DNA of 19,393 nucleotides, taken from the IMG/VR virus record IMGVR_UViG_3300018432_000003, positions 1 to 19,393 of that record. One strand, 5' to 3'. Origin of the DNA: a virus (lineage: Duplodnaviria; Heunggongvirae; Uroviricota; Caudoviricetes). The notes under the pieces were generated by a model. That model searched no databases. It was not told the origin of the DNA and saw only the letters and a list, made by a program, of their open reading frames with translations. A program made the position numbers and the translations under genes. How positions within the stretch are numbered: the stretch's first letter is position 1; each line of letters begins with the position of its first letter. Of the stretch, positions 1 to 19,393 are shown piece after piece.

Positions 1-366
1 GACGCCACCTTCCCTACCGAACGCTCTCGGTATGAAGTAGGCCCTACCGCCACCACCACGTTGCTTGCTACCAGTACCCTCATTAGTGAAGATTGCTGGT
101 CCGTAGTCAGTCCTGCTCGTCGCAGAGGCAGAATTGTTGCGCCTTATAACCCTTGCTGGCTTTATACTGCGGGGTATTCTACCGTGGGGTCCCTCACCAG
201 TCTCACCTATCGGTGCATACTGACGCTGGTACCTCTGCATTGCGTTGATGCCTTCCAATACGACTTGTGACATGTCGTTCGGAAGTGCGCTGTTAATACG
301 TCGAACAGCTTCGAGGTACTCACCCCAATTTTCCCACACTGAGAATGTCAGTGTTGCTTTCGCCAT
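1..366 (-). CDS. HK97 gp10-like neck/tail-completion protein (runs off the window edge; not in ORF track)
   Basis: Translated by hand from ATG at 366, 1 nt after the upstream TAA: MAKATLTFSVWENWGEYLEAVRRINSALPND...RQYAPIGETGEGPHGRIPRSI...TDYGPAIFTNEGTGS.... Open for 122 codons. AP-x-x-TG...R-SI and (Y)-x-x-x-x-x-x-GT patterns resemble gp10-like proteins; position follows the adaptor gene. Confidence 0.7.
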   Translation of the reverse strand, partial: MAKATLTFSVWENWGEYLEAVRRINSALPNDMSQVVLEGINAMQRYQRQYAPIGETGEGPHGRIPRSIKPARVIRRNNSASATSRTDYGPAIFTNEGTGSKQRGGGGRAYFIPRAFGREGGV

Positions 367-832: not shown

Positions 833-1315
833 TTACTTGTTGTCGTCAGTAGGCTCGTCGGCGGGAGCCTCTTCCTCGTCCTGGGTGTCATCTTCCTCAT
901 CCTCTTCCGCCTGCGCTTCCGCAGTGCGAATCTCGATGCCTTGGGCAACGTCGTTGTCCGTACCGTTGTCCTCACCCAATAGGCCGAATGAACGGGGGTC
1001 ATCGCTCGGAGCCTCAATCTCGTCTGCATCAATTTCCTCTAGTGCGTCCAGAGAAACAAACCTGTCGATTTCCTCCTGGTTGTACGCATAGAATGCAGTT
1101 GACTGCTTGTGCTCTGGGATGTTCTCGAAGTCAGACCCATCAGTGTACACGACGTAGCCGCGCATTAGTGGGAACCTAATCTCCTGAATGTTACCCTTCT
1201 CGTCCTTGGCCTTCTCGCTGTCCTTTGCGTCAGGGCCAGCAGCACCGCCTGAGCCGCCACTCAAGCGATGCGCACCTAGCCTAAGACGCTCTGTTACTAC
1301 TTGGTAAAGAGCCAT
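833..1315 (-). CDS. Hypothetical protein with very acidic C-terminal tail
   Basis: 160 aa, AGGAGG SD upstream of ATG. D/E-rich C-terminus. Fills the gap between capsid and adaptor genes. Confidence 0.75.
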   Translation of the reverse strand: MALYQVVTERLRLGAHRLSGGSGGAAGPDAKDSEKAKDEKGNIQEIRFPLMRGYVVYTDGSDFENIPEHKQSTAFYAYNQEEIDRFVSLDALEEIDADEIEAPSDDPRSFGLLGEDNGTDNDVAQGIEIRTAEAQAEEDEEDDTQDEEEAPADEPTDDNK

Positions 1316-1333
1316 CTATATTATCCTCCTGTG

Positions 1334-2242
1334 TTATGGCAGTACAAGTCCAGTGAACTTGACAATTGCGCCAGGGTCAGTAAGGAAGGCGATGGTCGTC
1401 CTCTTGCTACGCAAGTAGATACGCTCGTTACGCTCAATCCTCTCGACTGGCTTCATCTGAAGTGGTTCCTCGTCCGCGATACCACCAATCTCGCCTAGCT
1501 GTAGCGCGAAAGCGGTGTCCTTAGCCACGTACTGAGACTTCATGATGTTGAGTCCAGCGAGTTCGCCTACGGTATCCTTGAAGTAAGGATTCTCCGGCCT
1601 GTCACCGAAGAGTTCGCGGAGGTCAGCGTTCTGCTTCAACCTGTTGTAAGTGAAGTTACTCACTACCAACGTGTTCGGCGTGTAAACACCGCCTGCCGTG
1701 TCCTCATCCTCAATCATGTTCGACGCTTCCAAGAGGTCGTCCCAAATTCCTACGGAAGTCGGGTCGTTCCAGTTAACTGTCGGATATGTGCGGATACTCG
1801 GGTTCGTCTTGAGCATCGTCATCGTAACGCCGTCAAGGTGCTTCACCATCGTGTTCAGCATACGGGTAGTAGCTCTTGCGAGTACTCCTAGCTGGTTACG
1901 ACGCTCGTCCTCAAACGTAACGTACGCCTCGATACCGTACTTACGAACCTTGGCAACCTGTGGACCTACGTCCTCCATGTACACGGTATGGAAGTCAGAA
2001 CCTTCCGCGATAGCGAAGTTCTCGTTCGGTTCGTTCTTAGACTCTTCCATGTACGGGTAGGTTGACTCCTGGTATGATACTGCTCCACCTTGTGCAGAGT
2101 ACCCACCAGTGAACAAACTCTCCGCCAAGAACTTGCCCCGGCCCGCTAGGGTAAGGGTTTTCTTGATGATGGTCGGCTCCTTTAGGTAGTCGGCCACTGT
2201 GTGCGAAGTCTGGTTATTACTGAAGTGTGCGTTCAAAGGCAT
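1334..2242 (-). CDS. Major capsid protein (HK97 fold)
   Basis: 302 aa following protease/scaffold and decoration genes. Capsid-like segments: IAEGSDF, VAKVRKYGIEAYVTFEDERRN, PNTLVVSNFTYNRLKQN, GELAGLNIMKSQYV, AFLTDPGAIVKFTGL. Confidence 0.85.
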   Translation of the reverse strand: MPLNAHFSNNQTSHTVADYLKEPTIIKKTLTLAGRGKFLAESLFTGGYSAQGGAVSYQESTYPYMEESKNEPNENFAIAEGSDFHTVYMEDVGPQVAKVRKYGIEAYVTFEDERRNQLGVLARATTRMLNTMVKHLDGVTMTMLKTNPSIRTYPTVNWNDPTSVGIWDDLLEASNMIEDEDTAGGVYTPNTLVVSNFTYNRLKQNADLRELFGDRPENPYFKDTVGELAGLNIMKSQYVAKDTAFALQLGEIGGIADEEPLQMKPVERIERNERIYLRSKRTTIAFLTDPGAIVKFTGLVLP

Positions 2243-3194: not shown

Positions 3195-4361
3195 AGTACC
3201 TCCTTCCTCAATTCCTTTATCGTCGTTTACACTCTCGTCCGGGGTTACTCCCTCGAACTCCCCGGCTGAGAGGTCGATTGTCTCATCGTCCGGGTCAATT
3301 CCTGCCTTGACTGCCTCCCACGCACCCATCTCACCTAGGCGCGGGAAGTGTGTTCCTGCAACGTGCAAGAGCGTCGGGCCGTAGTACTTGCCTGTGCTCG
3401 GATGCACGAAGTTCGGGTGTACTTTCACGCTCACACCGAACTCAGGGTTGTGCTCTACAATCTTCTTCGCCTCATCAGTGAGTGAGAAGTCTGCATACAT
3501 CTTCGTAGGGTTCTCTTCGTCGTCCAGTGATAGGGAAGTCACCCTGCCAGCGTAGTCCCTCGGGTGGTCCGTGCCAGCATTGCTCTGGTGTAGGAACTGG
3601 AATGGTACGTACGCGAACGGCTTCTCTTTCCAGTTTGCGTATGCCTTCTTCAGCATCTCTGCCGTGAATCGTACCTTCCTACCTTGGTAATTGATGTCAC
3701 CAACTCTCCAGATTTCCTTGCGGAATGTACCGTCTGCACTCGCTGTCGCGGCATTACCCAACTCAACGACTGGTAGACGGAGCGCAAGCTCTGGCGCTGC
3801 TGACAACTCCATAATATCTAACCACTTGTTTGTGTCCACTTCTGTGTTCACCCCCTCCCCCCAATCATCGGACAACTCTATGATGGCATAGTCCATAAAC
3901 ATCTCGTCAGAGAGGGCGATGCTCTCAGTGATTTCCTTGCCGTCTGCACGGCGCTGTACGCGCCTCTTGGCCTTCTCAAGTTCCAGTATGTCAATCTCAC
4001 CCTCTGCTGCGGCGAGAATCATACCATCAATGAACTCTTCTGACGCCTTCGCCTTCCTCTTCTCCCACTGTGCCACTGCGCTGCATGCTGCGGTCTGTAC
4101 GGCCTTAGAAACGCTGACCTTACCGCCGAATGCCTTGCCGGTTGCACACGTTTTCTTCGCCCAATTGACTGCCGTCGCAATAACCCTGCTTATACTCCAG
4201 CCTGGGTTCTCGCGTAGGATTGCAGTCGCAACACTGTTGATGTATGTAGGTAGGCCACCATTCTTCTCCACCCAATTCTTCAAGGGTGAGAGATTAAGCT
4301 GACCCTTGCGCTCGGGATGGAGGGCTGGTACACCGCCAGCTAGTTCAATCACTGTTGTCAT
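2673..4361 (-). CDS. Capsid maturation protease (Mu gpI-like) fused to an N-terminal helical domain and a C-terminal scaffold
   Basis: 562 aa; ATG overlaps the portal stop (ATGA). Central FRKEIWRVG...LHQ...YAGRV...GVSVKV...LLHVAGTHFPRL is typical of Mu-like prohead protease. Acidic coiled-coil C-terminus. Confidence 0.85.
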   Translation of the reverse strand: MTTVIELAGGVPALHPERKGQLNLSPLKNWVEKNGGLPTYINSVATAILRENPGWSISRVIATAVNWAKKTCATGKAFGGKVSVSKAVQTAACSAVAQWEKRKAKASEEFIDGMILAAAEGEIDILELEKAKRRVQRRADGKEITESIALSDEMFMDYAIIELSDDWGEGVNTEVDTNKWLDIMELSAAPELALRLPVVELGNAATASADGTFRKEIWRVGDINYQGRKVRFTAEMLKKAYANWKEKPFAYVPFQFLHQSNAGTDHPRDYAGRVTSLSLDDEENPTKMYADFSLTDEAKKIVEHNPEFGVSVKVHPNFVHPSTGKYYGPTLLHVAGTHFPRLGEMGAWEAVKAGIDPDDETIDLSAGEFEGVTPDESVNDDKGIEEGGTMADKTDEKNEQTFDLSAVMESDAFKDALKLAVDAQTEDLRKKNEALETKVQEQQKAGYSATVKAAVNTYRNAGVPPIVLDYAEALMLSLDESQRNEAIELSVGSGDDAKDVKLNPVQLITKMLDETKGAIDLGVEKGTGEDPDETDLSSEKVQDDAAAYLADLAHLEYETVES

Positions 4362-5866
4362 GAATCATTCCTCCTGCGCTTTCTCCTGCTTGGGGTACGT
4401 GGGGTTTCAGGTCCACGCATCTGAGAGACTATACTTAGCTCGTCACTCACTTCCTTGCTGCTCGTAGTTGCGCTTAGCTTATCCTCTGCGGCTGTCTTTT
4501 GGTTGTTGTTGTTCTTGTCGTCGCCAGTCACCGCATTCTGACCACTACCCGCACGAGCCTCCTTACTCAAGAGGTTCTCACGTGCAGTCGGTATCGCCTT
4601 AACAATCTGCCTGTACTCTTCGTCGTCGTACTCAATCATCGGGTCAATTTCAAGGCCGAGGATGTCCTCAACACGCTGCATTAGCTGGAGCATGAAGTTC
4701 GGTGTCACGTTCGGTGCGTTTGAACCTATGATTGCCTTGTATGTCTCCAACACTGCGTCGGCAGTCTCGTCGTTGAGAGGACGGAACCTCAGCTTCGGGT
4801 ATGATGCATCCTGTCCGAAGTTGTACTGTACGAGGTCGGCTATCACATAATTGTTTATTGTCTCAGCCATATCGTCCAAGACCCCTTCAAGCTGGTTGAA
4901 GAAGAAGCTGGACTTGTCCTTTGAGAGTGCAAAGGAGCCTCGTTCGCCACTGGTTCCGAGGTCCAAGAACTGTCCGAGAGCCGCTCTAGCCATTTCCCAG
5001 TTAAGGTACTCAAGTGCGCTCTGATAATCTCGTGTGTTTCGCTGTGATTCATAGCTCTCAATCTCTTCATGCTCGTAAAGACCCATGATGCCGTTATGTG
5101 CGAGCATCCTAGCCTTGTCGAGCAAGTGCCTCAACTCAGTCGGGTCGTCACCAGCTACCTTTGCAATCGTACGTGGGAATGCCACGTTCTCTAGGAATGC
5201 AAAGTAGAAGAATGACACCTTCAGCTTCGAGAGGTAGTTCTTGTAGATTGTATCGAAGGGAGTCATACCAAGGATAGGGTTCTCGTCCGCACCGTGGATG
5301 TACACTAGGGCACGCTTCGGGTCGAAGTTCTGCTTTATGTACTTGTTCCCTTTGTATGCATCCTGCTGGAATCCATTGAAGCTACCGTTGGTGTCAGTAC
5401 GCAACTTGCACGTTGCCGGTGGACGCCAACCTAGCTTGTGGAGAACAACCTTGTCCTTGTACTTGCCCCTCTCCTGCACCTTCCAGACCTTCTCGAACGC
5501 CTGGAACCTGTAGATGATTGCGTTAGACATCTGTGCAATCACTTGCTTGAATGGGGTTGTCATGCCCCCTTGCTTGTAGGATGATAGTAGCGCATACTCT
5601 ACGAAGTCACGCTCACCGTTATCCCCTTCGGTGGCGAGGAACTCAAACTGCGCCCCTTTAATGGGTAGCTTCAGTGCAGTCGCAAGCTGTCTAGCCTGTG
5701 CGTCGTTCCTCAACATCTTCTCTAAGTCACGTACACTCGGACCACCGTCCAACTCCATGACCGTCATATCTTGTGGGTTTCGATACACTCGGGCAGGGTC
5801 GTAGGCTGTGCCCGACTCGTACTTGCGAGTATTCGGTATCTCGACCTCTACCTTAGTGATTGGCAT
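4358..5866 (-). CDS. Portal protein (Mu gp29/DUF935-like)
   Basis: 502 aa directly after terL. Segments LEKMLRNDAQARQLATALKLPI, YRFQAFEKVW, HGADENPILG, LNWEMARAALGQFL, GSFALS, INNYVIADLVQYNFG, YPKLRF. Confidence 0.9.
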   Translation of the reverse strand: MPITKVEVEIPNTRKYESGTAYDPARVYRNPQDMTVMELDGGPSVRDLEKMLRNDAQARQLATALKLPIKGAQFEFLATEGDNGERDFVEYALLSSYKQGGMTTPFKQVIAQMSNAIIYRFQAFEKVWKVQERGKYKDKVVLHKLGWRPPATCKLRTDTNGSFNGFQQDAYKGNKYIKQNFDPKRALVYIHGADENPILGMTPFDTIYKNYLSKLKVSFFYFAFLENVAFPRTIAKVAGDDPTELRHLLDKARMLAHNGIMGLYEHEEIESYESQRNTRDYQSALEYLNWEMARAALGQFLDLGTSGERGSFALSKDKSSFFFNQLEGVLDDMAETINNYVIADLVQYNFGQDASYPKLRFRPLNDETADAVLETYKAIIGSNAPNVTPNFMLQLMQRVEDILGLEIDPMIEYDDEEYRQIVKAIPTARENLLSKEARAGSGQNAVTGDDKNNNNQKTAAEDKLSATTSSKEVSDELSIVSQMRGPETPRTPSRRKRRRNDS

Positions 5867-7471: not shown

Positions 7472-8016
7472 GCACCCTCGTCCTCATATATGACCTCAGC
7501 ATCCTCAATGACCTCATCCTCGCGGTGGACTTTCGCTTGGTCCATCGGAGACATGTTATCGAACTCACCGGACGCCTGCGCCCTCTCCATCATGTCACGG
7601 ATTGTATCCTGTGGGATTTCCCCGTGCATCGTAGGTGCCTCGTGACCGCCTAGCTTGTCCAGCCTAGTAGCCGCCTGTATAGCAGCCTCGAACGACTTAG
7701 CCTGCAAGAGTGCTGGATGACCCTGCGGGTTCTCCATAATCTCAGTGGCCTTCTCCAATATGAACCTGTATACTGCGATGTTCGCCATCTTGCTGTCGCC
7801 ACCAGTGGCACGCTCGAATGCCGCGTGCTCGTTGATGAGAGTCTGTGCGCTCTCCCTGTTCAGACCGTGGTCACGTGCGAGTGCGCTCACGCTCTTCCCT
7901 TTGGCGTTCTCAAGGAACAGGTCGTAACCTAGTTCCGCTCTCTCGTCCAGCGTAAGGTCACGTAGTCTAGTCGTGGCCGGTAAATCCTGCTGACTCATCT
8001 TACTCTGCTCTCCCAA
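7468..8016 (-). CDS. terS: Terminase small subunit
   Basis: 182 aa with an HTH (KSVSALARDHGLNRESAQTLINE), helical core and acidic tail. Stop overlaps the terL start (ATGA). Confidence 0.75.
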   Translation of the reverse strand: MGEQSKMSQQDLPATTRLRDLTLDERAELGYDLFLENAKGKSVSALARDHGLNRESAQTLINEHAAFERATGGDSKMANIAVYRFILEKATEIMENPQGHPALLQAKSFEAAIQAATRLDKLGGHEAPTMHGEIPQDTIRDMMERAQASGEFDNMSPMDQAKVHREDEVIEDAEVIYEDEGA

Positions 8017-8477
8017 TGAGGTATCTGTTTAGAGAATAGGTCCTGTATGACTTTCATCTCGTTCCGCTTAACTATGTCCAGGTTCTCAGTTACGTGCTTT
8101 CTGAATCTCTTCCACTTGGACCTATCCGACCCGCGTTCCTGTCCTTTGACCTCGATGTAAGCCACTTCACCGGGAAGGGGATGGAGTCCGCACTCTGGAA
8201 GTAGCTGTGCAATCTTCTTCTTACTAGTGTTCGTCCATCGTACGACGAAATCTGGACGGTAGGTAAAGGGTCCACGCTTGTATTCGAGGTTCTGAAAAGT
8301 GAACTCTTGGGGTTCATACTCCCATCCATCTATGACCCCTCTGACGACCAGAAGATTGAGGAATCTGGCAAAGTCTCGCTCCCATCCTGATGCAAACTTA
8401 GTGGGTCCGAGGTCTGGGGCTGCTCCCTTCTTAACATTCCCATACTTAGCGTTCCGTCGTCTATTCCCATTTCCCAT
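7995..8477 (-). CDS. PD-(D/E)XK endonuclease (DUF1064-like)
   Basis: 160 aa: NAKYGNVK...FASGWERDFARFL...WEYEPQEF...YRPDFVV...IEVKG...KWKRF. Contains PD and E-x-K catalytic motifs; overlaps the terS start. Confidence 0.75.
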   Translation of the reverse strand: MGNGNRRRNAKYGNVKKGAAPDLGPTKFASGWERDFARFLNLLVVRGVIDGWEYEPQEFTFQNLEYKRGPFTYRPDFVVRWTNTSKKKIAQLLPECGLHPLPGEVAYIEVKGQERGSDRSKWKRFRKHVTENLDIVKRNEMKVIQDLFSKQIPHWESRVR

Positions 8478-12959: not shown

Positions 12960-15092
12960 CTAGAAGTTATCGTGGCAGTATACCTTACCGTTATTGAACC
13001 CTGCTGCCGTCTTGCACCCTGCCGTTATGTCAGTACCGTTGAATCTTACCTTCTCACTGCCGATGTTATTGTTGTATGCCTCTGCATTAAGCATGTCAGT
13101 CCTGTGGTCTGCTCCATCACTGAACTGCAACGCCCTCAGATTAGGGCCGTACGACACTCCACCGAAGGTAGCCGCACCGAAAGTGTTACCCCTCGCAGTG
13201 CAGTTCTGTGCGTCGTGGCATATGAATCCTGCTCCGTCACTTGCGTTGAATCCATTACCAGCGAACACGTTGTTCTCAATCAGTGAAGTCTCTGCTGTAG
13301 ATACCTGACCAGGGTCAAGTTGAGGACTGAACTCGTAACGAACACCGCTCCTACCGTTGTTGGCGAATGCACTGTCATGAATCCAGTAACCGTTCGTGCG
13401 TGCTGCGATGTTGTCGCAACCAACGTCACACCACAACCCTACTGCGGGGTTATCGTGTACCCATACCCTGTCGAACTCTGCTTCCTTAACGCTCTTACCT
13501 ACACTCGATGCCCAACCCCATGCATTCGGGTCGTACCCGCAGTTAGTGAACTCAGACCTACGTACAATCCCCGACATACCGGCGATGCACTGCACTGGTC
13601 CGTCCTTCACTTCCACGTGGTCTAGCACCGTCCCTGGTCCAGACTCGCCTAGTCCCAACACGTTACCGCTGCCTGTTACAATGCAGTAATCTGGTCCTGG
13701 GTTCCTGTCCGTGCAGCGAGGGTCGTCGAACGCCACGTCAGTCATTAGCTGGTGGTGTCCAGTCCATTCGTGCCACGTCATTGTGAAGTTTGCACCAGTC
13801 TGCGCTGTAAGCATCCTAGTAATCGTCGGTCCTGGGTCGGAAGTGTAGATATGCACACCGTTGTTAGGGTCAACCCCTGGTCCCTTCGGTGAGGTAGTTC
13901 CAGGTTGTCCCTCGAAGAAGTCACCTTCCTGCGCTACCACTGTAGTGCTGCCAGTGTTGTAGTCTCCATTCTCAACGCAGAAGTGTGCGCCCGCTGGTGT
14001 GTTATTTACGATAGATGCATAATCATCACCATTGCGTATCTTAGTACCCTCGCAAGTGTCAATCCATGCCTGCTGAGGAACACCGCCTACGTTAGTGTTG
14101 TTCTGTAGTGTAGTCCCACAGCCGTTTGCACACAACTGAATCCTGTCACCACCGAGGTCATTGTTAGACACTAGGTTGTTGGAGTTCACAGGTGCTCTTG
14201 CATCATCCAGTATTCTTATGCCTTGTCCGTTGTTCAACTCAGTGTGTCCGTCGAATGTGTTGTTGTTAACAGTCACGTCACTGGCTGAATTGATTAAGAA
14301 CCCTAGGTGTTGATTAGCTGGAGCCAGCCACCCATTAGATGTGAAGGTGTTTCCTTCAATCAGACAAGTGTTCAAGCAGTCAGTGATTTCAACTGACACC
14401 CCACCCTTGCCATTGTTAGTGAAGTCTGAATTCTGAATGTCAAAGTCGTCACACTGGATGTCGCACCATGCACCCATCCACCTGTTGTCCTTGACATCTA
14501 CATTATCGAGAGTTGCTGAACTTACAGTCTTGAGTCCCGCCGCTGATACTGGACCTTCACTCTCTCCTGAGAATACGGTGCTGCCGTTTGCATCAAGAAT
14601 AGAGTCTTGTATCAACAACCCTGGTCCGGTTCCGCCAACTCCTTGGTTCTCGTTACCAGTCGCTCTTACATCCTTGATTGTAAGGTTACTGCCTCCACCG
14701 CCGATTCCACGCCCACAGTCTGGTGAGCAGTCCTCATTACCCACAGCGCCAGTGACCGTCAACCCTTGTATCAGGGCACCACTGCCACTGCTAGTGTCGA
14801 AGATGTGCTGTGCCGTAGTGGTCGAAACCCTCGGCCTAGTGTTGTCAGAGTATGCGCCAATCCACTGGTCACCATTCTGTACAGGTATATCACTGTCAAC
14901 AGTGTACCTTCCGTCACGCAGACAGAATAAGCTACCAGCCTCTCGGTTGTTTGCTACGTTAACGAGATTACTCCCGGATGATACGTTCGGTGTACATGCA
15001 GTTGGGGGTTTTGGTGCGGCTACAGCGGTCGCTGCAAAGAGTAGGGAAGTGCAGATGATAAGAATGAATACAAGTAGTACGCGCTTCGTCAT
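12960..15092 (-). CDS. Secreted protein with two right-handed parallel beta-helix (pectin lyase-like) domains, 710 aa
   Basis: Start revised to ATG 15092 (GAGGTG upstream) because the track start lies in tRNA-Gln. Signal peptide MTKRVLLVFILIICTSLLFAATAVAA. Asn/Gly ladders and many Cys. The two halves begin similarly (...AGSLFCLRDGRY / ...AGAHFCVENGDY). Confidence 0.85.
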   Translation of the reverse strand: MTKRVLLVFILIICTSLLFAATAVAAPKPPTACTPNVSSGSNLVNVANNREAGSLFCLRDGRYTVDSDIPVQNGDQWIGAYSDNTRPRVSTTTAQHIFDTSSGSGALIQGLTVTGAVGNEDCSPDCGRGIGGGGSNLTIKDVRATGNENQGVGGTGPGLLIQDSILDANGSTVFSGESEGPVSAAGLKTVSSATLDNVDVKDNRWMGAWCDIQCDDFDIQNSDFTNNGKGGVSVEITDCLNTCLIEGNTFTSNGWLAPANQHLGFLINSASDVTVNNNTFDGHTELNNGQGIRILDDARAPVNSNNLVSNNDLGGDRIQLCANGCGTTLQNNTNVGGVPQQAWIDTCEGTKIRNGDDYASIVNNTPAGAHFCVENGDYNTGSTTVVAQEGDFFEGQPGTTSPKGPGVDPNNGVHIYTSDPGPTITRMLTAQTGANFTMTWHEWTGHHQLMTDVAFDDPRCTDRNPGPDYCIVTGSGNVLGLGESGPGTVLDHVEVKDGPVQCIAGMSGIVRRSEFTNCGYDPNAWGWASSVGKSVKEAEFDRVWVHDNPAVGLWCDVGCDNIAARTNGYWIHDSAFANNGRSGVRYEFSPQLDPGQVSTAETSLIENNVFAGNGFNASDGAGFICHDAQNCTARGNTFGAATFGGVSYGPNLRALQFSDGADHRTDMLNAEAYNNNIGSEKVRFNGTDITAGCKTAAGFNNGKVYCHDNF

Positions 15093-15133
15093 ATACACCT
15101 CGAAAACTGAATGATAGTATTGAACAATGAAAG

Positions 15134-15208
15134 TTGCACCGGAAGGAATCGAACCTTCGACATTGTGGTTCAAAGCCACAACACCAATGCCAGCATAGTA
15201 ACAGTGCA
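15134..15208 (-). tRNA. tRNA-Gln(TTG)
   Basis: Acceptor TGCACTG/CGGTGCA, anticodon arm TGTGG-CTTTGAA-CCACA, T-loop TTCGATT; no CCA. Confidence 0.9.
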
Positions 15209-15213
15209 ATGCG

Positions 15214-15581
15214 GATTATACTTGGGTATAGGCGGGGTTCTGTATTAACCTAGCATCCATCTGAGCCTCTACCCGTTTCCTATGTAGGCCATTTTCTTGG
15301 GCAAGAAAACGGTCGCATACAGGAAACTGTTTGAGTTGCACACGCCGGAGATTGCCTGCGTCATGGTATTACCCACAACCCTGCCCTTGTTCGGTGCGCT
15401 TGGCACCATCTCGGCTGGACAGCTTTCAGTAAGTGCCTACCTTACCTTCTCTCTGTTGCTCTTATCGTCTACAGCCATCACTGACTGCATCCCCACCTTA
15501 TTAGGGTGAGCGGTTTTAGTGTGCCCCGACCTTCCTCGATAGGGGAAAGTCCCTACCGCGCTAGGAGAGCCAAGTATAATC
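15214..15581 (-). ncRNA. rnpB: RNase P RNA (bacterial type-A-like, lacking P18 and P19)
   Basis: 12-bp P1 (15570-15581/15214-15225). P2 CCTAGCG/TGCTAGG. P3 hairpin. P4 pseudoknot GAGGAAGGTCGGGGC ... ACAGAACCCCGCCTA with the bulged U. P5 CACAC/GTGTG. P8; P9 with GUGA loop. CR-II GCAACAGAGAG. P12 then TGAAAG. P13 GGTGC/GCACC. P14 with GTAA. GCAGGCAATCTCC. P15 CTC/GAG with L15 AAACA/GGGTA. P16/P17. AGATGGATG before P2. Confidence 0.92.
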
Positions 15582-15585
15582 TAAG

Positions 15586-15657
15586 TCGGCACGGTGAGAA
15601 TCGAACTCACGACTTCCGCTTTATCAGAACGGCGCTCTACCCCTGAACTACGTGCCA
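15586..15657 (-). tRNA. tRNA-Ile(GAT)
   Basis: Acceptor TGGCACG/CGTGCCG, D stem GTTC/GAGC, anticodon arm CCGTT-CTGATAA-AGCGG, TTCGATT; no CCA. Confidence 0.92.
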
Positions 15658-15857
15658 GTGCGTACTAAATCTTCCCTGTCGAATACAGGCTCCCAATCCT
15701 CATCCACTAAGGTGACCGATGGATACCCTGCAATGTGCAAGAACCCTCCGGTAGTGGAGATGACGGGCTGTATGCTATTCTTAGGGAAAGTCTTGTTAAT
15801 CATCATCTTGGCTCGGAGCAACCGCACCCTAAATTGCATGGGTTCGTGGTCGCTCAT
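15648..15857 (-). CDS. Hypothetical protein (69 aa)
   Basis: AAAGGA SD. Fills the spacer between tRNA-Gly and tRNA-Ile; the TAG stop is positions 8-10 of tRNA-Ile. Confidence 0.65.
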   Translation of the reverse strand: MSDHEPMQFRVRLLRAKMMINKTFPKNSIQPVISTTGGFLHIAGYPSVTLVDEDWEPVFDREDLVRTGT

Positions 15858-15891
15858 ATCGGGTGGTCCTTTCCAAGTGATGTACTAAAAG

Positions 15892-15963
15892 AAGGGCATA
15901 CGAGAGTCGAACTCGTGACACTTGGGTGGAAGCCAAGTACGTTACCAGCTACGCCAATGCCCC
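15892..15963 (-). tRNA. tRNA-Gly(TCC)
   Basis: Acceptor GGGGCAT/ATGCCCT, U73, anticodon arm CTTGG-CTTCCAC-CCAAG, TTCGACT; no CCA. Confidence 0.92.
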
Positions 15964-16170
15964 AAATTGTGAGTCATACATGAATGATGCATCAGCGACT
16001 CCATTAGCCGCCTTGTTCTTTCCTTCTTCCTTCAGAACCTCAGCTACGGTCCCTGCCGTGATGTTCGGTCCATATCGCGTGACTATACGTAGGTTCCTTA
16101 CTGCTGCCTTGTTCTCTTCCGAGAGTTGGGCCTCCACATCCTTGTAGAGTACCGTATCCTCAACACCCAT
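15949..16170 (-). CDS. Hypothetical protein (73 aa)
   Basis: AAAGGA SD; stop TAG lies in the D arm of tRNA-Gly(TCC). Confidence 0.7.
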   Translation of the reverse strand: MGVEDTVLYKDVEAQLSEENKAAVRNLRIVTRYGPNITAGTVAEVLKEEGKNKAANGVADASFMYDSQFGALA

Positions 16171-16193
16171 AGTATAATCCTTTCGATTGTGAG

Positions 16194-16265
16194 TGTGGCT
16201 TACGGGAATCGAACCCGTCTTTCAGCGTTGGCAACGCCACGTAATAGCCGATATACCAAAGCCAC
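16194..16265 (-). tRNA. tRNA-Gly(GCC)
   Basis: Acceptor GTGGCTT/AAGCCAC, anticodon loop TTGCCAA with a weak stem (two G-U pairs), TTCGATT; A73; no CCA. Confidence 0.85.
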
Positions 16266-16268
16266 ATA

Positions 16269-16517
16269 TTACCAGAACTTCCACCAAGGTGTGGTCGCTT
16301 CCTTCCACAACCTCTCTGCAAGTCGTCTTGTGTCGTCATACTCAATGAATGAGTAGTAGGGTCGTTCCCCTTCCCATCCTTGCCGGAAGAACACTCGTAT
16401 GTGGTCGCCCCTGTCCTCTGACCCGTCCATGTGCATGTACATCATGCGGTGCCAGTTCAGGACCTCGATGCGCCCATACTTTTCGAGTGTATCCTTATGT
16501 AAGTCTACGTACCACAT
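16269..16517 (-). CDS. Hypothetical protein (82 aa, aromatic-rich)
   Basis: Exactly fills the Arg(CCT)-Gly(GCC) spacer; ATG 2 nt after the tRNA discriminator. Confidence 0.7.
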   Translation of the reverse strand: MWYVDLHKDTLEKYGRIEVLNWHRMMYMHMDGSEDRGDHIRVFFRQGWEGERPYYSFIEYDDTRRLAERLWKEATTPWWKFW

Positions 16518-16519
16518 AG

Positions 16520-16593
16520 CCTTCCTAGTAGGAGTCGAACCTACGGCCTACCGCTTAGGAGGCGGTCGCTCTGTCCATCTGAGCTATAGGAAG
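16520..16593 (-). tRNA. tRNA-Arg(CCT)
   Basis: Acceptor CTTCCTA/TAGGAAG, D stem GCTC/GAGC, anticodon arm ACCGC-CTCCTAA-GCGGT, TTCGACT; G73; no CCA. Confidence 0.93.
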
Positions 16594-16881
16594 TCACTTG
16601 TGCGTGAACATGCTCTCAAGGATTTGGTACCAACCCTCGTCGCTCTGTATCACGTCTTGCTGTATTAGGACGGGGTACTCGGTCAGTACTATGACCCAAC
16701 GTAGAGTCTGCATGTCTTTCCAACTCCATCGTATGTGCCAACCCTTATACTTCTCGGGGATGATGTAGTCCAACCAGCTTGCACCCTCTGGGAGTTCTTC
16801 CTTCCACTCAGGCTTAGGCCAGCGACGGTACTCGTCCTCTGGGAACTCAATTACCACTATGTCGTCTGTTATCTCTATCAT
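16594..16881 (-). CDS. Hypothetical protein (95 aa, Trp-rich)
   Basis: Start revised to ATG 16881 (MIEITDDIVVIEF...), since the track start is inside tRNA-Arg(TCT). Stop abuts tRNA-Arg(CCT) with a 0-nt gap. Confidence 0.7.
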   Translation of the reverse strand: MIEITDDIVVIEFPEDEYRRWPKPEWKEELPEGASWLDYIIPEKYKGWHIRWSWKDMQTLRWVIVLTEYPVLIQQDVIQSDEGWYQILESMFTHK

Positions 16882-16883
16882 AG

Positions 16884-16956
16884 CACGCCCCGTAGGAATC
16901 GAACCCACATAATCCAGCTTAGAAGGCTGGCGCATTCTCCGTTCTGCCAGAGGCGC
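16884..16956 (-). tRNA. tRNA-Arg(TCT)
   Basis: Acceptor GCGCCTC/GGGGCGT, anticodon arm CCAGC-CTTCTAA-GCTGG, TTCGATT; G73; no CCA. Confidence 0.92.
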
Positions 16957-16959
16957 ATG

Positions 16960-17121
16960 TTATCTACAGCAGCAACACTTGCACTTGCAAGTACTGTTTG
17001 CTTCCTCTACTTCTTTCGGTGTGACGACCCTGCCGCACGATAGGCACTTCAATTCAAGAATTGCCTCAGCGCCAGTTCGTCCCTTGGTCACCATCTCCAC
17101 ATTGTCATGTTTGCAACTCAT
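16960..17121 (-). CDS. Cys-rich small protein, 53 aa (not in ORF track)
   Basis: MSCKHDNVEMVTKGRTGAEAILELKCLSCGRVVTPKEVEEANSTCKCKCCCCR. ATGA-coupled to the upstream gene; stop 3 nt before the tRNA. Confidence 0.7.
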   Translation of the reverse strand: MSCKHDNVEMVTKGRTGAEAILELKCLSCGRVVTPKEVEEANSTCKCKCCCCR

Positions 17122-17348
17122 ACTTGGAGTATCACTTGATACTTCTGCCGTATGAACTGGACTTGCACTGCAAGCTCGATGTTGTTGTCCTCGATTTTAC
17201 CTACAGTCCAACTAGGTCCGAACATCTCTGACAGTGTGCGTATCGCCTTAGTCTGCTTATCCTGCCAGTCAACTTCATTCTTAGGGAAGAAGCTGTACGG
17301 TATGCGTACAATCCTACTGTCGAATACGCTTATTGTCGTGTTATCCAC
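17118..17348 (-). CDS. Hypothetical protein (76 aa)
   Basis: GTG start overlaps the upstream stop by 8 nt; the TGA is coupled to the next ATG. Confidence 0.65.
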   Translation of the reverse strand: MDNTTISVFDSRIVRIPYSFFPKNEVDWQDKQTKAIRTLSEMFGPSWTVGKIEDNNIELAVQVQFIRQKYQVILQV

Positions 17349-17514
17349 GTGCTCTCAGCACCGCCTTAACCCAAGCTATCGGAACGTACCATCCTTCACC
17401 ACGCACATGGTAGCTGTCGGGTTTCCTGTTCAGCAGACCCAACGCCCTAAGTGCGGTACACACATAGTGGTACTTGTGTCCTCTGAATCTCGCGTCCTCC
17501 GGTATACGCATCAT
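17341..17514 (-). CDS. Hypothetical basic protein, 57 aa (not in ORF track)
   Basis: MMRIPEDARFRGHKYHYVCTALRALGLLNRKPDSYHVRGEGWYVPIAWVKAVLRARG; ATG 2 nt after the tRNA-Arg(ACG) discriminator. Confidence 0.65.
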   Translation of the reverse strand: MMRIPEDARFRGHKYHYVCTALRALGLLNRKPDSYHVRGEGWYVPIAWVKAVLRARG

Positions 17515-17516
17515 AG

Positions 17517-17588
17517 CCTGTCTCCCAGGAATCGAACCCGGATTTGAGCGTTCGTAGCGCCCCGCACTCTCCGTTGTACTAGAGACAG
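17517..17588 (-). tRNA. tRNA-Arg(ACG)
   Basis: Acceptor CTGTCTC/GAGACAG, anticodon arm GGGCG-CTACGAA-CGCTC, TTCGATT; G73; no CCA. Confidence 0.92.
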
Positions 17589-17592
17589 ATTG

Positions 17593-17778
17593 TTATAGAG
17601 GGTTGACAATGACCCTCACTTTCTGTTCATCGTACACCTGACCGTCCTCATCCTTTATCGTCTGAACTGCGTTGGCGTCCAAGCTGTCCAGAGCAAAGAG
17701 ATGGAGGGGCTTATGGTTGTCGATGTACACCGTAAGGTTTCCATTATAGTGCCGCTCTATTTCTATTATGTGGTCCAT
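17593..17778 (-). CDS. Hypothetical protein (61 aa)
   Basis: Fills the Lys(CTT)-Arg(ACG) spacer; ATG 2 nt after the discriminator. Confidence 0.65.
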   Translation of the reverse strand: MDHIIEIERHYNGNLTVYIDNHKPLHLFALDSLDANAVQTIKDEDGQVYDEQKVRVIVNPL

Positions 17779-17780
17779 AG

Positions 17781-17849
17781 TGAACTGCCAAGGAATCGAA
17801 CCTTGCCTCCTGAGATTAAGAGCCTCTGATGCGTGCCACCGCGCAGTCC
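17781..17849 (-). tRNA. tRNA-Lys(CTT), atypical (69 nt, shrunken D arm)
   Basis: Acceptor GGACTGC/GCAGTTC, T arm CAAGG-TTCGATT-CCTTG, anticodon GAGG-CTCTTAA-TCTC. D arm is only GCG-GTGGCA-CGC. Confidence 0.7.
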
Positions 17850-17852
17850 ATG

Positions 17853-18011
17853 TTATTGGTTCTGAAACTTCTCGTCGTCGAACGCCCTGTCCACTTGCTT
17901 GAGCAACTTGATTGCAGCCTCCACCATCGTCTTGACTGGCTCGCCGTAACCGTAGTGTTCACTGCTGTCCTGCTGTACTAGTTCAATTGCCTTCTCAATC
18001 TTTGTCTTGAT
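17853..18011 (-). CDS. Hypothetical protein, 52 aa, apparent ATC start (not in ORF track)
   Basis: AGGAGG, then 5 nt, then ATC AAG ACA AAG...: (M)KTKIEKAIELVQQDSSEHYGYGEPVKTMVEAAIKLLKQVDRAFDDEKFQNQ. An in-frame TAG lies just upstream; the ORF fills the spacer between the two Lys tRNAs. Confidence 0.55.
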   Translation of the reverse strand: MKTKIEKAIELVQQDSSEHYGYGEPVKTMVEAAIKLLKQVDRAFDDEKFQNQ

Positions 18012-18027
18012 GACTGCCTCCTATAAG

Positions 18028-18097
18028 AGAGCCGTGCAGGAGTCGAACCCGCCTTCTGAGATTAAAAGCCTCGTGAGGTCCACCAGACCGACGGCCC
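18028..18097 (-). tRNA. tRNA-Lys(TTT), atypical (70 nt, 5-nt D loop)
   Basis: Acceptor GGGCCGT/ACGGCTC, D arm GGTC-TGGTG-GACC, anticodon GAGG-CTTTTAA-TCTC, T arm GCGGG-TTCGACT-CCTGC; U73. Confidence 0.75.
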
Positions 18098-18100
18098 ATG

Positions 18101-18334
18101 TCAACCCTTCTTCTCCAACAACTGTATGTTGAACTTCTGGGTTTTGTTGTTGTAGAACGTGAACTGGCTTATGTCAGTGCCGTCCAACCCCATCTCGTCA
18201 ACTACGTCCGCAATCTCTCGCAGTATATCAGTGAATGCCTCCTTGCTGCCCTCGAAGTCTATCTTCCGGGTTATGGTGAACCCTTGCATGTAGAACGTCC
18301 GATTGCCTATGGGTGGAAGTTTTTCTTCACTCAT
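18101..18334 (-). CDS. Hypothetical protein (77 aa), probably leaderless
   Basis: Start revised to ATG 18334 (MSEEKLPPIG...); the track extension runs through two tRNAs. ATG lies 6 nt after the -10 box and there is no SD. Confidence 0.75.
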   Translation of the reverse strand: MSEEKLPPIGNRTFYMQGFTITRKIDFEGSKEAFTDILREIADVVDEMGLDGTDISQFTFYNNKTQKFNIQLLEKKG

Positions 18335-18340
18335 AACTAC

Positions 18341-18369
18341 ATTATACCATACTTTCAGTGGTTTGTCAA
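18341..18369 (-). promoter_or_regulatory. Consensus sigma70/SigA promoter with extended -10
   Basis: TTGACA (18369-18364), a 17-nt spacer ending TGG, then TATAAT (18346-18341): perfect -35, -10, spacing and TGn. Confidence 0.9.
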
Positions 18370-18376
18370 GTGGGAG

Positions 18377-18448
18377 AGCATCTACCGGGAGTCGAACCCA
18401 GGACTGGTCCGTACCAAGGACCCGTTTTACCACTAGAACTATAGATGC
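18377..18448 (-). tRNA. tRNA-Thr(GGT)
   Basis: Acceptor GCATCTA/TAGATGC, anticodon arm GGTCC-TTGGTAC-GGACC, TTCGACT; no CCA. Confidence 0.92.
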
Positions 18449-18495
18449 GGGTGCGAGGGCAACACGCGGTTTGGGCCGCGCCCCTCGCATGTGAG

Positions 18496-18568
18496 TGGAG
18501 ATACAGGGACTCGAACCCTGAATACTGCGGTGCAAGCGCAGCGTGTTCCCAATTAGCACTATATCCCC
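18496..18568 (-). tRNA. tRNA-Ala(TGC)
   Basis: Acceptor GGGGATA/TATCTCC with the G3-U70 Ala determinant, anticodon arm CTGCG-CTTGCAC-CGCAG, TTCGAGT; A73; no CCA. Confidence 0.93.
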
Positions 18569-18641
18569 ATGTGCCCCGAGTTTTGATTACTGGATACGGG
18601 GTGAACCAGATTGCTACGCTACCGTCGCACGTAACTCTAAG

Positions 18642-18712
18642 AGCATCCTACCGGAGTCGAACCGATACCAACTGCGTACGAAGCAGCCGCAATCCCATTA
18701 TGCTAAGGATGC
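18642..18712 (-). tRNA. tRNA-Thr(CGT)
   Basis: Acceptor GCATCCT/AGGATGC, anticodon arm GCTGC-TTCGTAC-GCAGT, TTCGACT; no CCA. Confidence 0.9.
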
Positions 18713-18833
18713 TGGTGGTAGCTCACTCACCCACTACCGCGCCTCTCGGCCCTCTCCCCTGCGTCACACCACTTCCTAGTAGGCCGATGGTTTCCTAGGA
18801 CGCTTCGACCGTTCGGGGTAGGTGTCACCCGAG

Positions 18834-18904
18834 AGCACGTAACAGGAATCGAACCCGTACCAGAGGTGTACAAAACCCCCGCAATACCATTATGCTATAC
18901 GTGC
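18834..18904 (-). tRNA. tRNA-Thr(TGT)
   Basis: Acceptor GCACGTA/TACGTGC, anticodon arm GGGGT-TTTGTAC-ACCTC, TTCGATT; D arm nearly identical to that of Thr(CGT); no CCA. Confidence 0.9.
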
Positions 18905-19035
18905 TTACGTTCTTTCATTACTGCCAGTCCTACTGCGAGTGCAGAGCAGAACGAGAAGAGTATGGAATAACCCTCCGCTCTCTGCGCCTTGTAGGTGCCC
19001 TCCGCGAGAGTCGCCGCCAATTCTATCGGGTTCAT
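18895..19035 (-). CDS. Small protein with a hydrophobic segment, 46 aa (not in ORF track)
   Basis: MNPIELAATLAEGTYKAQRAEGYSILFSFCSALAVGLAVMKERKHV; ATGA-coupled; TAG is positions 8-10 of tRNA-Thr(TGT). Confidence 0.55.
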   Translation of the reverse strand: MNPIELAATLAEGTYKAQRAEGYSILFSFCSALAVGLAVMKERKHV

Positions 19036-19130
19036 CCCACAGGCTCCATGCAAGAGGGACAGCACCCAAAGTTCTCATCGACTTCCTGCTCGTCGAGTTC
19101 CTCACCGCAAACCTCACAGTACCAGTTCAT
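19032..19130 (-). CDS. Mini zinc-ribbon protein, 32 aa (not in ORF track)
   Basis: MNWYCEVCGEELDEQEVDENFGCCPSCMEPVG: CxxC...CPxC; ATGA-coupled at both ends. Confidence 0.65.
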   Translation of the reverse strand: MNWYCEVCGEELDEQEVDENFGCCPSCMEPVG

Positions 19131-19237
19131 CCGAACTCCTGATAGCTACGAAGCAACCACTTCAATCTCTCTGCGGCATCCTCGTCGCCAGCTAGAACCT
19201 TCTCAACCAACTCGTCTACGAACGTATAATCATTCAC
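19127..19237 (-). CDS. Small helical protein, 36 aa (not in ORF track)
   Basis: MNDYTFVDELVEKVLAGDEDAAERLKWLLRSYQEFG; GTGA-coupled to the upstream stop. Confidence 0.55.
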   Translation of the reverse strand: MNDYTFVDELVEKVLAGDEDAAERLKWLLRSYQEFG

Positions 19238-19392
19238 TTCTTGTTCTTGCTCCCCTTCTTGGGTCCTGGCTTACTCCCACGCTGTGACGGTGACTTCTTC
19301 TTCCGTCTAGGGTACTTGCGCTTTGAGGCTGACTTTGCCGCATTCTTGTTGCCCATCTTCTTGCCTTGGGCACCTTTCTTCACGCGACCAGA
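19234..19392 (-). CDS. C-terminal part of a highly Lys/Arg-rich protein (starts outside the window)
   Basis: ...SGRVKKGAQGKKMGNKNAAKSASKRKYPRRKKKSPSQRGSKPGPKKGSKNKK*; open to the window edge. Confidence 0.65.
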   Translation of the reverse strand, partial: SGRVKKGAQGKKMGNKNAAKSASKRKYPRRKKKSPSQRGSKPGPKKGSKNKK

Positions 19393-19393
19393 C

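Follow-up and report, generated by a model that had tools for sequence, protein, structure and literature searches.

Sequence evidence for a P18-less class A RNase P RNA carried in a phage tRNA array

An RNase P RNA gene among phage tRNAs

The stretch of DNA analysed here (the window, 19,393 nucleotides) is the first 19.4 kb of IMG/VR record IMGVR_UViG_3300018432_000003, a 95,940-bp tailed-phage genome that has direct terminal repeats (DTRs) and is rated 100% complete by CheckV. Genes for a major head protein, a portal and a large terminase lie in the window, together with part of a transfer RNA (tRNA) array. ARAGORN detected 34 tRNA genes in the genome, all on the minus strand between positions 15133 and 22380, with 13 of them inside the window. 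The second-to-last element of this array, near its 3' end and on the same strand, is the subject of this work: we regard it as a genuine phage-borne, P18-less variant of the class A RNA of ribonuclease P (RNase P) that related soil phages, forming a clade, have conserved. Because the genome is complete, with DTRs and with head, portal and terminase genes, a host neighbourhood or prophage edge is excluded. The RNA gene sits in phage DNA, as an earlier note on this DNA had held from its flanks, and not in a chimera.

The earlier note had proposed a search with covariance models, and this gave a significant, end-to-end result. The bacterial class A model (RF00010, RNaseP_bact_a) matched positions 15214–15577 of the minus strand over model positions 1–367 of 367, with 76.6 bits and an E-value of 1.8e-23 (cmscan of 15100–15700 with permissive filters). 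A search of the whole genome recovered the same locus (E 6.7e-25), and the class B model (RF00011) had no match in the phage at E ≤ 0.01. With its default settings, scanning the window against Rfam reported 11 tRNAs only; the RNase P RNA was silent there because its score is below the RF00010 gathering score of 100 bits. The tRNA-free gap around the gene spans 15209–15584 (376 nt), so the limits first given for it, 15214–15581, were nearly exact. As a single sequence the RNA, with a guanine-cytosine (GC) content of 51%, folds at −130 kcal/mol (z = −2.84), and zero shuffles folded equally well.

The helix P4 with its bulged U is the catalytic centre of RNase P RNA. In the window RNA, A46–G48 and C50–G54, on either side of the bulged U49, pair with C346–U348 and C341–G345, giving 8/8 pairs. 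This is the P4 described earlier (AGG[U]CGGGG with CCCCGCCU, bulged U kept); the corresponding E. coli strands are AAG[U]CCGGG and CCCGGCUU. Other details of that first description could likewise be located in the sequence, namely P5 (CACAC/GUGUG), a GNRA loop on P9 (GUGA), and both GCAACAGAGAG and the L15 GGGUA as motifs common to the window RNA and E. coli M1 RNA. The joint J11/12 (CR-II) is the region of the specificity domain that recognises the T-loop, and the GGU of L15 in E. coli binds the 3' RCC of tRNA. Class A peripheral helices P13, P14, P16 and P17 are present, whereas class B RNAs are marked by P5.1, P10.1 and P15.1.

The view that the RNA folds helix by helix like its E. coli counterpart did not quite hold. 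Helix P12 is shortened, helices P13 and P17 are lengthened, a partner for P6 is not evident and the P18 hairpin is absent. In class A RNase P RNA the P18 loop docks into P8. In the window RNA the 24-position P18 insert of the model contains 0 residues, and only 7 nt separate the L15 GGUA from AGAUGGAUG. This loss does not exclude membership of class A, because P18 is not universal in the family: among 120 cellular RNAs of Acidimicrobiia with the same P4 strands, at least 70 are also without it.

Conservation in related phages and wider searches

Relatives of the window phage were located through homologues of its terminase, on contigs from other assemblies and studies. Four of them (L217, L218, L220 and L221) have tRNA arrays syntenic with that of the window phage, and all four gave a full-length RF00010 match at the same place, just ahead of the terminal tRNA-Gln; in L218 the score exceeds the gathering score (Table 1). 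tRNA-Ile(GAU) ends 2–8 nt upstream of the RNase P RNA (window, L218 and L220) and tRNA-Gln begins within 1–5 nt downstream of it (L217 and L220). Soil run X3, which belongs to a different study, holds a relative at about 93% identity, and its contig with tRNA-Gln continues into ACCCGGCUUACUCCAGCCAAGUAC, the 3' end of an RNase P RNA with a canonical P4 strand.

Covariation among homologues from related contigs, also proposed in the earlier note, proved strong and extended to P4. The five phage RNAs share 51–70% pairwise identity, and RNAalifold predicted 76 pairs for them, 44 with compensatory changes. We then counted a core set of 43 pairs from P2, P4, P5, P7–P11 and P15, with the structure taken from the window sequence and with five sequences, which are few: 208 of 213 cells were paired (97.7%) and 28 of the 43 pairs covaried. 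When the 3' partner was slid by 1–3 columns, 32–42% of cells were paired and 4–6 pairs covaried, and 0 of 2000 column shuffles reached the observed pairing or covariation. P4 occurs in four different sequences and is fully paired in all five phages, with covariation at 5/8 pairs, none broken and the bulged U invariant. Pairing is also complete for P1 in the window, L217 and L221 (8/8) and for P10/P11 in all five phages (30/30 cells).

The unpaired elements of the core are retained as well. J11/12 reads (A/G)CAGAGA and J12/13 contains an invariant UGAAA in 5/5 phages, and the GGU of L15 is kept in 4/5 (window, L217, L218 and L220), the P15 region of L221 being reduced. All five RNAs lack P18 and share an invariant AGAUGGAUG. 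The L221 RNA, at 295 nt, has lost the entire P16/P17 arm and reduced P15 to a short hairpin while retaining P4 and the joints of the specificity domain; it is a natural minimised variant.

These comparisons bear on whether the gene is a functionless passenger, that is, a decaying fragment of host rnpB lately captured along with tRNAs, or the product of chimeric assembly. In favour of this are the low covariance-model score and a P4 sequence that cellular RNase P RNAs of Acidimicrobiia also have. Nevertheless, five phages known from independent assemblies and studies have the RNA at one shared position, the genome is complete and carries DTRs, and a GC content of 51%, against 67% in the Acidimicrobiia copies, points to long residence in phage DNA. 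Moreover, since the RNAs differ by 30–49% and still keep 97.7% of core pairs, their structure appears to be under purifying selection. The passenger explanation is thus largely refuted, and we give it very little credence; by all sequence indications the RNA is selectively maintained in the phage clade.

Outside this clade, blastn with the window and L218 RNAs found no match in 50,697 GenBank phage records. The 15-mer GAGGAAGGTCGGGGC had 80 matches in IMG/VR, mostly due to chance, and only two of them, L014 and L050, also had the 3' strand of P4. The 18-mer GGCGTGTGCAACTCAAAC had 1 viral and 7 metagenome matches, all attributable to chance, with no RNase P RNA or tRNA on any. L050 (IMGVR_UViG_3300020429_000529) is a 498,568-bp contig of an unrelated huge phage; at 3875–4116, inside a tRNA cluster, it carries a 242-nt mini RNase P RNA (RF00010, 55.5 bits, model 1–367) that has P4 strands identical to those of the window and lacks most of the specificity domain. 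L014 (IMGVR_UViG_3300044703_000110) has at 1–352 a P18-less RNase P RNA of cellular type (71% GC, 200.7 bits), at the extreme end of what is stored of this 31.7-kb contig, listed in IMG/VR as "viral", which may be a prophage or other element adjoining or inserted at an rnpB of Acidimicrobiia type. Sequencing run X5 gave no match, and run X2 matched part of tRNA-Gln only.

Table 1. Features of the window phage and RNase P RNA loci of its relatives. Positions with two dots are those of the window; helix positions are RNA positions counted from window 15577.
Feature	Position	Strand	Remarks
RNase P RNA gene (type A, P18-less), 364 nt	15214..15577	minus	RF00010 match; same place in four related phages
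tRNA array, portion in window (13 tRNAs)	15133..19393	minus	ARAGORN; array continues to genome 22380
tRNA-Ile(GAU)	15585..15657	minus	ends 8 nt ahead of first base of P1
tRNA-Gln(UUG)	15133..15208	minus	5' end 5–6 nt past RNase P RNA match
P1	1–8 / 353–360		
P2	13–18 / 324–329		
P3	21–27 / 34–40		
P4	46–48, 50–54 / 346–348, 341–345		bulged U49; AGG[U]CGGGG / CCCCGCCU
P5	55–59 / 235–239		CACAC/GUGUG
P7	65–67 / 231–233		
P8	69–73 / 81–85		
P9	90–96 / 101–107		GUGA loop
P10/P11	112–120 / 223–230		
P12	133–137 / 145–149		short, 5 bp
P13	156–161 / 192–197		6 bp, 30-nt insert
P14	198–205 / 212–219		7/8 bp
P15	243–245 / 309–311		
P16	251–256 / 298–303		6 bp
P17	266–275 / 280–289		long, 10 bp
CR-I, GAGGAAGGUCGGGGC	15523..15537	minus	P4 5' strand (15532–15530, 15528–15524), bulged U at 15529
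CR-V, ACAGAACCCCGCCUAU	15228..15243	minus	P4 3' strand (15237–15233, 15232–15230)
P1 3' strand, CCAAGUAU	15218..15225	minus	pairs with AUACUUGG at 15577–15570
J11/12, ACAGAGAGAAGG (CR-II, specificity domain)	15445..15456	minus	RNA 122–133; matches Rfam consensus and E. coli
J12/13, CUGAAAG (CR-III)	15423..15429	minus	RNA 149–155
L15/J15-16, CGGGUAGAG	15267..15275	minus	contains GGU
CAGAUGGAUG	15254..15263	minus	immediately 3' of P15, empty P18 site
L217 RNase P RNA	1080–1436		terminase 87%; 86 bits; P4 AGC[U]CAGGA / UCCUGGCU
L218 RNase P RNA	7948–8314		terminase 56%; 134.1 bits, over gathering score; P4 AAG[U]CCGUG / CACGGCUU
L220 RNase P RNA	4855–5242		terminase 50%; 79.4 bits; P4 AGG[U]CGGGA / UCCCGCCU
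L221 RNase P RNA	7875–8169		terminase 50%; 61.1 bits; P4 as in L220
tmRNA, 242 nt	genome 21778–22019	minus	RF00023, 47.4 bits, barely over gathering score 47
CCA-adding-type nucleotidyltransferase, 476 aa	genome ~58435–59865 (L214:1408–2838)	plus	PF01743 PolyA_pol head domain, 113.8 bits
Neighbour gene, 710 aa	12960..15092	minus	precomputed beta-helix domain PF13229
Neighbour gene, 1068 aa	9744..12950	minus	relatives often fused to PhoD-like domains

Proposed role in tRNA maturation

Given the homology, the intact catalytic and substrate-binding core, the purifying selection and the fixed position in a tRNA operon, the best reading of these data is an active class A RNase P ribozyme of a lytic-type tailed phage that serves the maturation of phage tRNAs, which we consider likely. 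The RNA would probably be transcribed within the long minus-strand array. With tRNA-Ile ending 8 nt before it and tRNA-Gln starting 5–6 nt after it, excision by the tRNA-processing machinery suggests itself: an RNase P cut at the 5' end of tRNA-Gln would leave the ribozyme with its 3' end, and its 5' end would arise when tRNA-Ile is trimmed at the 3' side, so that the tRNAs would act as punctuation. The mature RNA would most likely bind the RnpA protein of the host and strip the 5' leaders from the 34 CCA-less phage pre-tRNAs and from the transfer-messenger RNA (tmRNA), and the phage CCA-adding enzyme would then rebuild the tRNA 3' ends. The expected gain would be faster maturation of the phage's own tRNAs, with a capacity that meets the needs of a genome of about 52% GC, in which codon use is probably unlike that of a high-GC host.

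The phage genes available for such a pathway were searched for. RnpA (PF00825), the protein that stimulates the removal of pre-tRNA 5' leaders by RNase P RNA, was not found even at E ≤ 1, a search that a very divergent small protein could escape, and from this result we infer the use of host RnpA, in keeping with the earlier note. Nor was a metallo-beta-lactamase of RNase Z type (PF12706) found in the phage. Its 476-aa CCA-adding enzyme has homologues in 381 GenBank phage records and is widespread among large phages. The tmRNA gene lies inside the tRNA array, 2.4 kb past the end of the window.

As for transcription, no terminator-like site was found on the minus strand in the scanned region 14800–19393. 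An exact sigma-70 consensus promoter (TTGACA, a 17-nt spacer with TG, TATAAT) is present within the array at 18369–18341 of the minus strand, just downstream of tRNA-Thr(GGU), and may be an internal start from which the distal half, and with it the RNase P RNA, is transcribed. A promoter-like site at 15600–15573 (9/12 matches) was rejected as a dedicated promoter, as it extends over parts of tRNA-Ile and P1 and such sites are as numerous as expected by chance.

Several points weigh against an active ribozyme working as proposed. The score of 76.6 bits is under the Rfam gathering threshold. The missing P18 could lower activity, though cellular Acidimicrobiia RNAs are likewise without it, and so could the lack of an evident P6 partner for the GCCC of L17 (J5/7 reads UAAAAC; part of the alternatives was searched). 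Contigs from metatranscriptome run X16 corresponded to the conserved cores of other organisms, with low identity and unrelated flanks, and thus do not bear on expression. Dependence on host RnpA is deduced solely from a phage gene not having been found, and co-transcription only from missing predicted terminators, for which a consensus scan is weak evidence. Finally, seven tRNA-rich or CCA-enzyme-bearing GenBank phages (Tunturi_5, LR756501.1, pPa_SNUABM_DT01, pCD1602_4, SRB7757, Bxz1 and Jay2Jay) had no match in RF00010 scans, so an RNase P RNA is not a general need of tRNA-rich phages.

Some of these features would also suit a non-catalytic decoy, an RNase P RNA mimic that sequesters host RnpA or host pre-tRNAs and thereby depresses host tRNA maturation. 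As no phage rnpA was found, the phage RNA must compete for the host protein; its score is below the gathering score, P18 is absent and P6 unclear; and the RNase P-like RNA of camelpox virus, inactive in vitro, has been discussed as a possible decoy (PMC3001073). However, a protein-binding surface would suffice for a decoy, and yet the catalytic elements are conserved (P4 with its bulged U, J11/12, J12/13 and the L15 GGU). In addition, the 34 tRNAs of the phage themselves need RNase P, so that blocking it would harm the phage. We therefore consider a decoy improbable.

An active ribozyme could alternatively have as its chief task the cutting of the polycistronic array transcript into separate mRNAs, timing their expression, or the sustaining of processing during infection if the host enzyme is attacked or switched off. 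Open reading frames (ORFs) of 53–113 aa occupy the gaps between tRNAs at 15648–17778 of the minus strand, these gaps measure 177–559 nt in the half of the array that contains the RNase P RNA, and the ribozyme is itself flanked by tRNAs. Called ORFs between tRNAs were also seen in the relatives. On the other hand, all these ORFs are predicted only, the cleavage would involve the same chemistry as tRNA maturation and be compatible with it, and the variant in which host RNase P is shut down is supposition. Such a main role seems unlikely to us, and an active ribozyme for phage tRNA maturation is the reading kept below.

A further property of the array concerns tRNA 3' ends. None of the 34 tRNA genes encodes CCA, but a C directly follows the discriminator in 32/34 and C-U in 30/34 (background CT frequency 0.068). 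This C74 is near-universal in the tRNAs of L217, L218, L220 and L221 (29/29, 12/16, 13/13 and 3/3, respectively), and the unrelated huge phage L050 has TT, not C74, after the discriminator. One may speculate that C74, usually followed by U75, pairs with the GGU of L15 in the CCA-less precursors; it could instead guide 3' trimming and CCA repair.

Beyond tRNA-Gln lie genes for a 710-aa and a 1068-aa protein, both likely to be tail fibre or spike proteins and both variable between close relatives. The 710-aa protein had no relative but itself in viral contigs or in a set of 5.8 billion proteins. Homologues of the 1068-aa protein occur on contigs without tRNA arrays (L083–L085) and also led to the best relative, a 96,244-bp ENA contig (sample ERZ25039504) with a 568-nt ORF-free gap where the RNase P RNA would be expected.

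Origin, meaning and comparison with known systems

The exact P4 strands of the window RNA (GAGGAAGGUCGGGGC ... ACAGAACCCCGCC) were found in at least 120 species genomes. Among the matches listed, all records with titles were from Actinomycetota, mostly Acidimicrobiales, Microthrixaceae or Iamiaceae. Besides the at least 70 of 120 that lack P18, 110 of these 120 cellular RNAs read AGAUGGAUG, a motif that is phylum-wide and not specific to Acidimicrobiia (14 of 15 parsed Actinomycetota loci; the phylum-wide tallies include the unpublished genomes G004 and G051, and sequence-level claims rest on others). The Acidimicrobiia copies score 206–236 bits at about 67% GC, against 76.6 bits and 51% GC for the phage copy. 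Another Actinomycetota genome, G071, has two full-length class A RNase P matches on different contigs (234.6 and 193.8 bits), which could mean an extra copy like those of mycobacteria or a contamination of the bin.

With regard to the host, 448 of 494 portal homologues among cultured phages came from actinophages, and the best terminase matches were actinophages as well, at 28–30% identity. As the database is rich in actinophages, this similarity is a weak clue. The P4 identity with Acidimicrobiia may be due to convergence, since P4 varies within the phage clade itself (L217, L218 and the X3 relative differ). Taken together, the P4 sequence, the P18 loss and the portal and terminase similarity point tentatively to a host or donor among Actinomycetota, perhaps Acidimicrobiia. 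An Actinomycetota host has slightly better than even chances in our judgement, and Acidimicrobiia in particular are a possible but doubtful choice. It is similarly doubtful that the whole picture holds, namely a soil-phage clade probably infecting high-GC Actinomycetota that captured from a host an active, self-punctuated ribozyme and thereby freed its tRNA 5' maturation from host RNase P RNA.

RNase P RNA is seen as a universal housekeeping ribozyme of cells and organelles. An RNase P RNA encoded and maintained by a virus would add the tRNA-maturing ribozyme to the parts of translation that viruses are known to take over, namely tRNAs, tmRNA and the CCA-adding enzyme. If it is active and independent of the host RNA, tRNA production could continue after host transcription is shut off, and the phage could withstand host defences aimed at RNase P or tRNA maturation. 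Viruses would thereby also yield their first known RNase P RNAs with catalytic competence, and these would form a naturally occurring series of minimised type A ribozymes, without P18 here and without P16/P17 in L221. Slimmed, highly diverged and with compensatory changes in P4, the phage RNAs are suited to structure-function study, and a ribozyme flanked by its own substrates offers a module in which to ask about self-maturation. Standard annotation overlooks such genes, their scores falling under the Rfam gathering score, and lineage signatures in the RNA may aid host assignment of uncultured phages.

Compared with E. coli M1 RNA (rnpB, RF00010), the phage RNA has the same order of helices (P1–P5 and P7–P17), the P4 pseudoknot with its bulged U, CR-I to CR-V, J11/12, J12/13, the GNRA loop on P9 and the GGU in L15. 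It differs in its location, a tRNA array of a phage, in two swapped P4 pairs, and in its absent P18, short P12, extended P13 and P17 and unclear P6. With cellular Acidimicrobiia RNase P RNAs it shares identical P4 strands, the loss of P18 and AGAUGGAUG; unlike them, it has a lower score and lower GC and belongs to a clade in which P4 is variable. The rnpB of organelles (plastids, cyanelles and some mitochondria) likewise provides a reduced RNA in a small, tRNA-bearing genome, with the protein supplied by another genome. However, organellar rnpB descends vertically from endosymbionts, whereas the phage RNA is viral and has a nearly full bacterial core.

Ribozymes beside phage tRNA genes have a parallel in the theta (HDV-like) ribozymes, which adjoin tRNAs in gut phages and have been proposed to act in tRNA end maturation (PMC10879173). 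Those are small and self-cleaving and process 3' trailers, in contrast to RNase P RNA, a trans-acting, multiple-turnover endonuclease RNA for 5' ends. In our full-text literature search, no publication that describes an RNase P RNA encoded by a phage came to light. In a 2024 review of RNase P, phages appear only as sources of substrates (PMC11143913), and a survey of huge phages lists tRNAs, tmRNAs and translation factors without mentioning RNase P (PMC7162821).

In the literature searched, the only "viral RNase P-like RNA" is that of an orthopoxvirus, camelpox, which has a loose structural resemblance to RNase P RNA and did not cleave pre-tRNA in vitro (PMC3001073). The phage RNA, unlike this RNA of a eukaryotic virus, is clearly homologous to RNase P RNA, and its core is intact. 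Extra copies of rnpB have been described in Mycobacterium austroafricanum and M. sp. YC-RL4; their specificity domain is altered, whereas the catalytic residues are conserved (Behra et al. 2022, PMC9569102). Their authors judged them to have come by horizontal transfer, and extra tmRNA genes, traced to a mycobacteriophage, are present in the two genomes as well (PMC9569102). To go by the published description alone, the likeness is that they are additional RNase P RNA copies, in their case in Actinomycetota, but they lie in bacterial chromosomes and were not claimed as phage genes. This mycobacterial pair and the inactive camelpox RNA are the nearest precedents for the phage RNase P RNA.

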